DNA of 32,000 bases from Nostoc punctiforme PCC 73102. GTDB lineage: Bacteria > Cyanobacteriota > Cyanobacteriia > Cyanobacteriales > Nostocaceae. A program made the position numbers and the translations under genes. Location of the stretch: positions 1,680,001 to 1,712,000 of the forward strand of contig NC_010628.1 in assembly GCF_000020025.1 (NCBI RefSeq), written 5' to 3'. The notes beneath the pieces are model-generated. The model was given only the letters and a program-made list of their open reading frames with translations, was not told the DNA's origin and ran no database searches. This document shows, in pieces, positions 25,683-27,335 of the stretch (position 1 is its first letter; each line of letters begins with the position of its first letter).

Positions 25683-27335
25683 TTATATTTGATCGGCTAT
25701 TTCTTTTACCAAAGCAGCAGGTATCTCTACTGTCATTGTAGTTGCCTTTTTTAATGTTTCTATATACGTTGGGATATCGACTTCTAGCCCAAAGTTTTCT
25801 ACTCCAGCATTTCGCTTCACACTCCCTTTTGATGAGATAAAGTTAATAGACGATCCTTTGCGAGTGTTTAATATTGCCTCCATATGCTTTTTGTGTTCTC
25901 GATCAAATGTCTCGTTCCATTCACTAACATTTGCTTTTTTGGCACTCTCGTAGCTTCTTTTGTCAAAAAACCCTAAACTTTCTACATATTGTTTTTCCTT
26001 AGCTTTGCGCCTTTTTTCTATTTTGGTAGCTTCACTATGTGTATCTGTGTCCCCTATTTTTTCACTCAGCAGCTTCACCATACTCTTGATGACTGCACCA
26101 CCCCCCATTGGCAATACAACTATGCCGTCTTCCTCTAGATGGTTTTGTGCAACAATTTTCAGAGCGAAAGGAATCAAAGCTGTAAGCAATCCTCCACGAG
26201 CATCCTGTGTTGCATCAGTGTGGAGGACAGTATAACCATCTGTAGGAGGTTCTATTTTCACCTCTCCAAGCCATACCGAACCTTTGAAAGTTACGTCTTT
26301 TCGTGCTTCAACATAATGATATTTTTTGTCTTGAGAGTAGATAATTTTTACTCCTCCCTCCTCTTTTAGCACTTTTATTTCAGTCCTATTATCCTTGCTG
26401 GTATCTTCCGCTCCTCCGCGTTGGATGACACCCTGGGGTGCTTTTGACATGAGATAATTTTTAGCTTGGAGAAACTTATCTGCCTCTCCCCAATTGTCAT
26501 GTTTTTGGGTAACAGCAGGCTGCACCGCACCGCCATTCTGCTGCACCACATGGGTCAATTCATGGGCAATCAACTCCTGTCCCCCTCTACTCCCTGGCTG
26601 ATATTCACCCTGTCGGAAGAACACATCCTGCCCTGTGGTAAACGCCTTCGCTTGAATTGATTGATTCAACTGATGAGCCTGAGCATCTGTATGTACCCTT
26701 ACCCCACTAAAATCTGTTCCCATCGCTTGCCCCATTGACTGTTGCAGATTGGCATCCAAAGACTGTCCACCACCTCTAGCACTATTAATAGAGTCTGCCA
26801 AATCCGTTGATGCTTCACCTCCAGGAATAGCTTCTCGGCGCTGCACCATCTCTGGTAACTGCTTTAGTTGCAATTCTTCTTCATCTGTTTGCTGGCGTTG
26901 TAAAGTATTAGTTTGTATTGGCGCTGAATCTTCCTTTGGCAGTGCATTCGTTTGTGGTGTGTTGATCTTCTGCACCACATCCTTGGCTACTCGATCCGCT
27001 TCTTGCTCATACTTATCCCCCGCTTCCCCTATTGTCAGCTTCGCCTGAATAGGTGCGCCAACTTCCCCAGAATTACCCCAAAGTTGCGCGGAAATCCCTT
27101 GGAATTCAGGTATCCACGGCGTTTGCTTCCCTGCCAAAATCTCTCGCGTTGACCTTGAACCGATCGCACTCTCTAACTCCTGTCTCTCATTCCCACTCAC
27201 ACTATTTGGGTCTTGTTGTACTCTCTGCACAACTGAAGACAATGACCCATAACTGCGACTAGGGGCAATCTTTTTACTTATTGGCGTTGATGGCAGTGAG
27301 GGTACAACTTTTTGAAATATTTGTTTTTGGTACAT
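25683..27335 (-). CDS. DUF4157 (eCIS-associated HExxH-like) domain protein with a novel ~270-aa C-terminal domain; candidate CIS cargo/effector
   Basis: 550 aa. DUF4157 hallmarks are GDKYEQEADRVAKDVV and FSGVRVHTDAQAHQLNQSIQAKAFTTGQDVFF...ELIAHELTHVVQQ (core about nt 26538-26783). A Ser/Gln/Pro-rich N-terminal region precedes them. The C-terminal region (nt 25686-26498) is unassigned. A GGAGA Shine-Dalgarno lies 7 nt upstream of the ATG. Confidence 0.85.
   Translation of the reverse strand: MYQKQIFQKVVPSLPSTPISKKIAPSRSYGSLSSVVQRVQQDPNSVSGNERQELESAIGSRSTREILAGKQTPWIPEFQGISAQLWGNSGEVGAPIQAKLTIGEAGDKYEQEADRVAKDVVQKINTPQTNALPKEDSAPIQTNTLQRQQTDEEELQLKQLPEMVQRREAIPGGEASTDLADSINSARGGGQSLDANLQQSMGQAMGTDFSGVRVHTDAQAHQLNQSIQAKAFTTGQDVFFRQGEYQPGSRGGQELIAHELTHVVQQNGGAVQPAVTQKHDNWGEADKFLQAKNYLMSKAPQGVIQRGGAEDTSKDNRTEIKVLKEEGGVKIIYSQDKKYHYVEARKDVTFKGSVWLGEVKIEPPTDGYTVLHTDATQDARGGLLTALIPFALKIVAQNHLEEDGIVVLPMGGGAVIKSMVKLLSEKIGDTDTHSEATKIEKRRKAKEKQYVESLGFFDKRSYESAKKANVSEWNETFDREHKKHMEAILNTRKGSSINFISSKGSVKRNAGVENFGLEVDIPTYIETLKKATTMTVEIPAALVKEIADQI

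Follow-up and report, generated by a model that had tools for sequence, protein, structure and literature searches.

A candidate contractile injection system cargo protein of Nostoc punctiforme PCC 73102 with an exchangeable C-terminal payload and a predicted acetyltransferase-like core

DUF4157, formerly named 'PVC-metallopeptidase', is a core domain of extracellular contractile injection systems (eCIS) and is found at the N-terminus of diverse toxins, many of which have no immunity gene (PMC8213781). Among the predicted eCIS-associated toxins (EATs), 1130 contain DUF4157 and 983 of these have no other annotated domain (PMC11297309, 2024). In AlgoCIS, the proteins Cgo1 and Cgo2 are laid out as an N-terminal domain (NTD), DUF4157 and, lastly, the C-terminal domain (CTD), fill the lumen of the tube and are released on contraction (PMC8894135). 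The NTD is needed there for cargo loading and DUF4157 and the CTD are dispensable (bioRxiv 10.64898/2026.05.27.728243). The HExxH motif of Cgo1 is likewise dispensable for Cgo1 toxicity. For the thylakoid-anchored contractile injection system (CIS) of Anabaena, mass spectrometry of CIS preparations detected two DUF4157 proteins whose genes are divergently transcribed (PMC8894136), and a DUF4157 protein of S. davawensis co-purifies with the spike tip (PMC11126660). Here, we consider a gene of this kind in a stretch of 32,000 nucleotides of Nostoc punctiforme PCC 73102 (contig NC_010628.1, positions 1,680,001 to 1,712,000), referred to below as the window. The gene (25683..27335, reverse strand, ATG start) is an open reading frame (ORF) for a 550-aa DUF4157 (eCIS_core) protein. 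Our reading, to which we assign a probability of roughly 60%, is that its product is a modular cargo (effector) protein of the adjacent Nostoc CIS with an exchangeable payload. That the protein is CIS cargo at all is, by analogy with AlgoCIS, quite probable. The preliminary description of this gene took the combination of DUF4157 with an unannotated CTD to be novel, but the above counts place it in a known and abundant class; what is new is the payload family, while the cargo class is known.

The exchangeable nature of the payload is seen when orthologous loci are compared. A scan of reference genomes revealed four such loci, in N. punctiforme UO1 (L001), Nostoc sp. DedQUE02 (L005), Nostoc sp. 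LEGE 12447 (L006) and Nostoc sp. KVJ20 (L007), with flanking proteins that are 88–98% identical to those of the window. Five Nostoc genomes retain the synteny with the AAA+ and Pvc16 genes, and L001 is strictly syntenic, with the same Pvc16, CarboxypepD_reg, sheath, AAA+, Rieske, 126-aa, P450 and HAD genes. Domain swapping, for which the preliminary description had proposed looking at orthologous loci, is indeed found: two of the four loci (L006 and L007) carry the same CTD as the window, at 90–92% identity, and the other two (L001, where the DUF4157 protein has 627 aa, and L005) carry an unrelated one, with flanks that are about 93% identical. In blastn comparison with L005, the swapped cassette corresponds to 25676..26529 (reverse strand), with about 93–94% identity on both flanks and nothing that aligns between them. 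In the comparison with L001, homology ends at 26519 and resumes at 25579, such that the cassette corresponds to 25580..26518 (reverse strand). By these breakpoints, the swapped block begins where the HExxH helix ends and closes shortly beyond the stop codon, such that the whole part of the protein after aa ~270 is an exchangeable cassette.

The same position is also variable in more distant relatives. In 82 related loci, 106 DUF4157 ORFs yielded 90 CTD clusters, of which 80 were singletons. CTDs found at this position in relatives that share the N-terminal module include a GH-E nuclease, a barnase-type ribonuclease, a Scabin-like ADP-ribosyltransferase, Tox-HDC, Peptidase_M91, a calpain-type peptidase and DUF4765. 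One protein, P0070 of Calothrix sp. NIES-4101 (L011 region), has DUF4157 fused directly to the CIS spike-tip domain PF19267. It should be noted that this fusion, as well as a DUF4157-CTD gene that lies right before a separate spike-tip gene in another Nostoc lineage (L086:10001-12786), hints that some DUF4157 proteins are carried by the spike and not inside the tube.

The genes on both sides of the DUF4157 gene are CIS genes. Downstream, and probably co-transcribed with it, is an AAA+ ATPase with a winged-helix domain (WHD), which resembles Cis15/Pvc15 (23377..25605, reverse strand; Pfam WHD E = 1.2e-32, AAA E = 3.9e-30). The longest ORF for this ATPase starts at ATG 25605 and encodes 742 aa, whereas the start of the N. 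punctiforme UO1 ortholog (L001) is equivalent to GTG 25530, for a protein of 717 aa. GTG 25530 is preceded by an AAGGAA-like sequence and nucleotide homology to L001 resumes only at 25579, such that GTG 25530 is, judged by sequence, more likely the true start. No terminator-like site was found between the DUF4157 gene and the AAA+ gene; in the promoter and terminator scans, counts were not above chance. On the other side, the divergent CIS structural operon is read on the forward strand. Its first gene encodes Pvc16_N (27747..28331; Cis16/tail-terminator-like; PF14065 E = 6.1e-35), a protein that is 97–98% identical in L001 and L005–L007. It is followed by a CarboxypepD_reg-like (transthyretin-like) protein that is conserved in the syntenic loci (28346..28984, forward strand; PF13620 E = 2.2e-15) and by two sheath proteins (29118..30563 and 30664..31764, forward strand), each matching Phage_sheath_1 and Phage_sheath_1C. 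In N. punctiforme UO1 (L001), the operon goes on with tube, LysM-tube, VgrG-like and base_V genes. This AAA+ and Pvc16-sheath context, a three-part architecture like that of Cgo1 and Cgo2 and the domain polymorphism at the orthologous locus agree with the earlier proposal that the protein is a candidate CIS effector with a swappable CTD.

The earlier assignment of a DUF4157 region with an HExxH-like motif is confirmed by Pfam, in which PF13699 (DUF4157, now named eCIS_core) matches aa 193–269 (26529..26759, reverse strand) at E = 2.2e-33, scores 114.7 bits (cut-off 22) and covers profile positions 2–78 of 79. Read from the sequence, the motif is HELTH (aa 258–262; 26550..26564, reverse strand), and the pattern HE..H[IVLA].Q was present in 120 of 120 homologs among the matches listed. 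The motif GDKYEQEADRVA (aa 106–117) falls outside the Pfam envelope and within a larger conserved module of aa ~96–272 that is common to thousands of homologs. This extended module (aa 96–272; 26520..27050, reverse strand) includes both the GDKYEQEADRVA helix (aa 104–125) and the Pfam core. End-to-end matches were obtained for three proteins only, the full-length homologs P0001–P0003, all from Nostoc, which are 87–92% identical to the 550-aa protein and share its start and end residues. About 50 of the 120 best homologs align from aa 1 to ~270, while most of the others align only over aa ~96–272, and aa 1–95 are common only to those relatives that also have a similar AAA+ protein encoded alongside (46–94% identity). 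Given these layers of alignment, aa 1–95 (27051..27335, reverse strand) are considered a lineage-specific leader and aa 96–272 a widely shared module. By analogy with the Cgo1 and Cgo2 deletion experiments in AlgoCIS, the leader is a candidate loading signal.

The full-length AlphaFold model was built from a 64-sequence alignment and has a mean predicted local distance difference test (pLDDT) score of 73. The N-terminal region is, as read from the sequence, rich in Ser, Gln and Pro, and was previously described as probably disordered. Taking pLDDT as the indicator, this would hold for aa 1–29 and 72–105, where values are below 50, but not for aa 31–67, which form confident helices. A Sec-type hydrophobic N-terminus was not seen when the sequence of the 550-aa protein was read. 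Further along the model are a confident helix that carries GDKYEQEADRVA (aa 104–125), a low-confidence segment (aa 134–176) and the DUF4157 core (aa 178–270; nt 26526–26804), where pLDDT is 87–96. This confidently modelled core had no neighbour in the PDB, and all of the significant-looking Foldseek matches of the full-length model fell in the GNAT-like CTD, such that, in the library used, the core appears to have a fold without a solved relative. A low-confidence linker (aa 273–308; 26412..26519, reverse strand; pLDDT < 50 for aa 271–308) connects the DUF4157 core to the folded CTD, which occupies aa 318–550 of the model and begins at aa ~313–318, past the linker. The C-terminal part had been placed from aa ~280; the variable region in fact begins at aa ~270–273 (nt 26519–26529), right after the HExxH helix.

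The payload domain itself (aa 309–550; 25686..26411, reverse strand) belongs to a rare, unannotated family. Queried as a single sequence (aa ~296–550) or as a family profile, the CTD gave no match in Pfam (E <= 10), NCBIfam, PADLOC, PHROGs or PDB sequences, in line with the earlier remark that no known domain is recognisable in it. Weak matches to OLD-TOPRIM, Fibritin_C, a designed repeat protein and a His-tag were rejected as noise. When 1.84 billion cluster representatives were searched exhaustively with HMMER, 18 proteins matched at E <= 0.001, and for 14 of these E was <= 1e-10. A word-indexed protein search yielded nothing for the CTD alone, missing even the 92%-identical P0002, and three proteins for the family profile. 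As the exhaustive search found 18 representatives, the negative outcome of the word-indexed search should not be taken as absence and is attributed to a limit of the index. The family domain is always located at the extreme C-terminus, in proteins of 141–740 aa, and identity is 27–38% outside the clade of the window. DUF4157 lies upstream of it in seven of the ten members scanned, and the others have short Q/S/P-rich leaders. Named members come from three phyla (Nostoc, Hymenobacter elongatus, Parapedobacter pyrenivorans and Marinicrinis sediminis) and are annotated only as hypothetical or DUF4157 proteins. In the family alignment (A1, numbered here by the 550-aa protein), 11 columns are invariant (T373, G382, A414, K417, L423, S424, G428, A436, R443, E480 and H481) and seven are near-invariant (Q305, G307, E343, L371, G381, A391 and H484). 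One member from a second Nostoc lineage (P0127, L086) is encoded in a CIS operon of different organisation, with AAA+/amidase genes on one side and spike-tip/VgrG genes on the other; the CTD is thus independently recruited into a different Nostoc CIS operon. Another member (P0138, L084) adjoins an AAA protein that is 40% identical to that of the window. Considered as the tail of an eCIS operon, L084 has only this AAA protein as a recognisable component, with upstream genes that have no Pfam match.

A short motif marks the junction between module and payload. Just before the folded CTD, aa 303–306 (26418..26429, reverse strand) read VIQR, an instance of h-h-Q-[RK], which is followed by a family-specific GG. 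The pattern [IVLM][IVLMA]Q[RK], typically G-V-I-Q-R, was present in 30 of 104 CTDs in the first 60 aa that follow the DUF4157 core, as compared with 2.9 +/- 1.7 in shuffled sequences (maximum of 10 in 1000 shuffles), and its density there is about ninefold that in CTD bodies. At +10 to +80 from the HExxH, the motif was present in 52 of the 120 best homologs, as compared with 5 of 120 for an equally large control window. The motif recurs at fixed positions upstream of the DUF4157 core, with conserved copies at about -220, -130 and -90 from the HExxH, and the 550-aa protein also has it at aa 35–38, 120–123 and 163–166. Within the CTD family, the Gln of the motif is near-invariant, and members without DUF4157 also keep the motif. 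One may speculate that h-h-Q-[RK] is a demarcation, recognition or processing site. No description of such a junction motif was found in the DUF4157 and CIS literature surveyed, and the motif offers a concrete handle on the function of the DUF4157 module.

For the fold of the CTD, an AlphaFold model was built for 255 residues from the 18-sequence alignment, with pLDDT of 85.5 and a predicted template modelling score (pTM) of 0.81. The beta-rich first half and Lys/Glu-rich helical second half described earlier were reproduced in both AlphaFold models. The two 'halves' are, in the models, probably a single domain, with a GNAT-like beta/alpha core, a three-helix insertion at aa 430–489 and strands that return to the sheet. 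When this CTD model was searched with Foldseek, GNAT acetyltransferases accounted for all of the top 45 PDB matches (including 3shp, SpeG, GCN5, PA3270, IAA acetyltransferase and VipF), and most matches in the viral BFVD library were GNAT/NAT_SF proteins. The CTD within the second, full-length model, which was based on a different alignment, gave the same GNAT list. The preliminary view of an undescribed fold thus appears overstated, as both models retrieve GNAT acetyltransferases almost exclusively, albeit through partial and weak matches. On these models, we hypothesise that the CTD has an acetyltransferase-like core.

The predicted core spans aa 340–427 (26055..26318, reverse strand) and consists of three strands, an R-G-G-L loop (aa 380–383), a helix, a strand, a P-M-G-G-G-A-V-I-K loop and a helix. 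The Foldseek GNAT matches were placed on this segment by the order of secondary-structure elements and not by aligned coordinates. In this placement, strands 340–348, 352–365 and 368–375 would correspond to GNAT beta2-beta4, helix 383–398 to alpha3, strand 405–411 to beta5 and helix 413–427 to alpha4, with the C-terminal strands as putative beta6 and beta7. The segment is followed by the Lys/Glu-rich insertion of three helices (aa 430–453, 456–468 and 475–489; whole insertion aa 430–489, 25869..26048, reverse strand), which holds the invariant R443, E480 and H481 and the near-invariant H484. At the predicted beta4-alpha3 loop, where the pyrophosphate-binding motif A of GNATs (Q/R-x-x-G-x-G/A) is located, the family has the consensus G-G-L-G, in which G382 is invariant and G381 near-invariant. 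The segment of GNATs that comprises beta4, a loop, alpha3, beta5, a loop and alpha4 binds the cofactor. As seven of the 11 invariant columns (T373, G382, A414, K417, L423, S424 and G428) fall, by the same placement, within the beta4-to-alpha4 segment, an acyl-CoA-type transferase is tentatively favoured, at less than even odds.

Several observations weigh against this picture of a CIS-delivered, GNAT-like payload and need to be considered. The GNAT matches cover only about 80 of 255 residues, at E 2e-3 to 0.2 and with target TM-scores of 0.3–0.42. Neither a profile search against PDB sequences nor Pfam hmmscan (E <= 10) of all 18 family members yielded a GNAT match. An hhalign comparison of the CTD with a very small GNAT set, composed of one GNAT ORF (L057) and two further sequences, gave a probability of 0.6%. 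L057 holds the one genuine GNAT ORF in 1.13 Mb of the loci analysed, where a second match was a false positive. The sole stretch aligned by hhalign, in which the CTD R-G-G-L-L-T-A-L... stands against the GNAT motif-A/alpha3 segment, was not significant. The alpha1-alpha2 element of GNATs is absent from the CTD model, and the window clade reads R-G-G-L-L-T, with a Leu at the sixth position of motif A, where G or A is expected. As for delivery, four of the seven distant family members examined have no recognisable CIS gene within 10 kb; these orphans are P0133, P0137, P0129 and P0122 (L002, L003, L085 and L087, respectively). Finally, the ratio of non-synonymous to synonymous substitution rates (dN/dS) of the CTD, calculated for the window against L006 and L007 as for all of the rates given here, is 0.49–0.59, a value that reflects modest constraint among close relatives.

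The corresponding dN/dS values are 0.07–0.11 for the DUF4157 core, 0.15–0.18 for AAA+ and 0.10–0.11 for sheath 1, with an overall range of 0.07–0.18 for the core together with AAA+, Pvc16 and sheath. The CTD thus changes more rapidly than the machinery, which is common for effectors, and is still constrained, as 11 columns are conserved across three phyla. Synonymous rates (dS) were 0.07–0.10 for the CTD, 0.09–0.12 for Pvc16, 0.13–0.20 for sheath 1, 0.29–0.39 for AAA+ and 0.26–0.70 for the NTD and DUF4157 core. We considered the low CTD dS as proof of a recent transfer and rejected it, since the dS of Pvc16 and sheath is also low and the locus is mosaic. The mosaic dS (window 23377–31764) suggests that Nostoc strains have recombined here in more than the exchange of the CTD.

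No immunity gene accompanies the cassette. The gap between the DUF4157 and AAA+ genes (77 nt, or 152 nt with the GTG 25530 start) contains no plausible ORF, only ORFs of 25 and 38 aa that overlap the maximal AAA+ ORF, and no plausible immunity ORF is present in either of the intergenic regions that flank the DUF4157 gene. The other two alleles at the locus (L001 and L005) are likewise without an extra gene, and the boundaries of the cassettes exclude an additional one. Across seven contexts (the window and six others), the CTD family has no conserved small neighbour. As a positive control, the DUF4157 protein P0081 (L083:4001-6121), with a barnase-type ribonuclease CTD, is directly followed by a Barstar-domain gene. 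This toxin-immunity pair of the same polymorphic family is itself surrounded by housekeeping genes, and its 6.2-kb contig has no CIS gene. Since no immunity gene comes with the cassette of the window, we infer that the payload is harmless to its producer: its target is probably absent from the producer (e.g., a eukaryotic target), or the protein is inactive or unfolded until delivery.

Taken as a mechanism, the modular-cargo reading would proceed as follows. Residues 1–95 would serve as the loading signal, and the adjoining AAA+ ATPase would, by analogy with AlgoCIS, read this leader and thread the protein into the lumen of the tube or onto the spike complex. The DUF4157 module (aa 96–272) with its HExxH would be an accessory module common to this class of cargo. 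The cassette, which recombines between the conserved 3' end of DUF4157 and the 5' region of the ATPase gene, would supply a flexible linker ending in VIQR-GG and an enzyme-like domain of about 240 aa with a predicted GNAT-like core. This domain would present the Gly-rich beta4-alpha3 loop, the conserved beta5-alpha4 element and the helical insertion with the invariant E-H..H. Once in the recipient cell, the CTD would modify a target by acyl transfer from an acyl-CoA-type donor; the target would be one that the producer probably lacks, for instance in a eukaryotic grazer or host, unless the protein stays inactive or unfolded until delivered. The acyl-transfer step, which draws on the structure models, is advanced tentatively. 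A bolder version holds that the CTD founds a new family of GNAT-derived injected acyltransferase toxins (without alpha1-alpha2, with the E-H..H insertion), delivered without immunity by cyanobacterial and Bacteroidota CIS to a target found only in eukaryotic grazers or hosts, and that the HExxH module of DUF4157 uses h-h-Q-R/K, as a site of processing or recognition, to release or position the payload. We regard this combination as improbable.

Other explanations differ from the modular-cargo reading in the chemistry of the payload, in the place where it acts or in the connection to the CIS. The CTD could be a toxin or other payload without being an acyltransferase, the GNAT-like sheet being a scaffold and E480-H481..H484, R443 and E343 forming the active cluster, as in a metal-dependent hydrolase or a target-sequestering domain. 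The invariant E185/H186 and near-invariant H189 (CTD numbering) do belong to the helical insertion and not to the GNAT core, and the missing alpha1-alpha2, the imperfect motif A of the window clade and the lack of a GNAT signal at sequence level point the same way. Nonetheless, most invariant columns would, by the placement described above, belong to the GNAT cofactor-binding elements and no hydrolase fold was among the Foldseek matches, such that this explanation is possible and, in our view, doubtful. That the protein is an accessory factor of the CIS, with DUF4157 as a chaperone, adaptor or assembly part and a CTD that interacts inside the producer (e.g., with spike, baseplate or membrane), we consider unlikely. 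A structural adaptor is not expected to be swapped for unrelated domains at a locus that is otherwise about 93% identical or to share its position with nucleases, ADP-ribosyltransferases and proteases in relatives. Moreover, the CTD has enzyme-like invariant polar residues, and AlgoCIS proteins of homologous architecture are released cargo. Such a role would nonetheless fit the standing of DUF4157 as a 'core' eCIS domain in 13 phyla, for which a chaperone role was proposed (PMC8213781; PMC11297309), the P0070 spike-tip fusion, the DUF4157 gene directly before the spike-tip gene in L086 and the co-purification of the S. davawensis protein with the spike tip.

The payload might also act on the producer itself, if the CIS fires in stressed cells and the effector aids regulated lysis or the formation of 'ghost cells', as was proposed for Streptomyces CIS and discussed for the thylakoid-anchored CIS of Anabaena. 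This would account for the lack of an immunity gene in all alleles at the locus, and the thylakoid-anchored CIS of cyanobacteria was linked to stress-induced ghost cells (PMC8894136), and cytoplasmic CIS of Streptomyces are reported to mediate cell death (PMC10066040). On the other hand, extreme CTD polymorphism is a signature of an arms race and not of a housekeeping death pathway, and self-toxic payloads of the same family do carry immunity (Barstar). An action on the producer appears no more likely than the accessory role. Least probable of all is that the gene is functionally unrelated to the CIS and encodes a generic secreted or intracellular DUF4157 protein that just happens to be encoded beside the cluster. 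Several members of the CTD family and many DUF4157 genes are indeed orphans, far from CIS genes, but the AAA+/Pvc16 synteny kept in five Nostoc genomes, the lack of a terminator-like site ahead of the AAA+ gene, the strong enrichment of DUF4157 in eCIS loci (odds ratio 2614; PMC8213781) and an N-terminus without Sec-type hydrophobicity speak for a connection.

Beside the CIS cluster (window 18321–23338; L001:14206-18999) are genes for a Rieske protein (587 aa), a 126-aa protein without a Pfam match and a cytochrome P450. N. punctiforme UO1 has a Rieske protein of 99% identity, and the best NCBIfam similarities of the P450 are to terpenoid-oxidising P450s. The Rieske and P450 genes, as well as HAD and polysaccharide-synthesis genes on this side, are taken to be unrelated to the CIS genes. 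Window positions 488–13885, the left third, have no relation to the finding and resemble a polysaccharide or sugar-modification region, with genes for a methyltransferase, a DegT/EryC1 aminotransferase, a GNVR/AAA_31 tyrosine-kinase-like protein, a GT4 glycosyltransferase and NIF3, and also encode a metallo-beta-lactamase/RMMBL RNase-J-like protein.

CIS are being engineered as programmable devices for protein delivery, and their natural payloads are mostly unknown. The present locus shows payload exchange at nucleotide resolution in a symbiosis-competent Nostoc, in which chassis, loader and leader are constant and the warhead is changed. It also provides a rare payload family from three phyla with a hypothesis for its active site (GNAT-like core and E-H..H). 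No description of a GNAT-type CIS effector was found in the literature surveyed, and PMC11297309 makes no mention of an acetyltransferase or GNAT EAT. If the acyl-transfer step were true, an acyltransferase-type activity would be added to the CIS effector repertoire, and the missing immunity would point to a eukaryotic target. The finding thus extends a known class and does not overturn current understanding.

Of the described systems, AlgoCIS Cgo1/Cgo2 and the DUF4157 EATs (Geller 2021; Danov 2024) resemble the Nostoc protein in having an NTD that is partly disordered (for the Nostoc protein, as suggested by pLDDT), a central DUF4157 with HExxH and a variable CTD, in being encoded in or next to a CIS cluster with a Cis15-like AAA+ ATPase and in often lacking an immunity gene. 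The Nostoc CTD, however, is unrelated to theirs or to that of any tested EAT, and its NTD, with a confident helical element at aa 31–67, is predicted not to be fully disordered. Moreover, loading and toxicity of Cgo1 and Cgo2 were shown by experiment, and those of the Nostoc protein are putative. Alr3311 and Alr3312 of Anabaena sp. PCC 7120, compared by description, are also DUF4157 proteins from Nostocales that are divergent from the CIS structural genes, and were proposed as tube cargo (PMC8894136).

As for enzymatic relatives, the GNAT toxins and effectors (TacT, AtaT and ItaT; VipF of Legionella) share with the CTD what is predicted to be the GNAT cofactor-binding core, and VipF was among the Foldseek matches. 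Differently from these, the CTD has no detectable sequence relationship to them, lacks alpha1-alpha2 and contains a helical insertion of about 60 residues with the invariant E-H..H, and its use of acetyl-CoA is putative. TacT, AtaT and ItaT are, furthermore, small stand-alone toxins with an adjacent antitoxin, whereas the CTD is the C-terminus of a 550-aa protein for which no antitoxin partner was found in the seven contexts.

Polymorphic toxins (CdiA-CT, Rhs-CT; 'PVC-metallopeptidase' class, Zhang et al. 2012, in the form in which that work is cited in PMC8213781) differ from the Nostoc locus in that its alleles have no immunity gene and no array of orphan cassettes downstream, and in that delivery would be by a CIS here and is by a type V or type VI secretion system there. 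They are alike in that some DUF4157 alleles have cognate immunity (Barstar), in a short putative demarcation motif before the payload, with a role that would be comparable to that of VENN in CdiA, and in their design, in which a conserved N-terminal trafficking module is combined with hypervariable C-terminal cassettes that recombine at a conserved junction.

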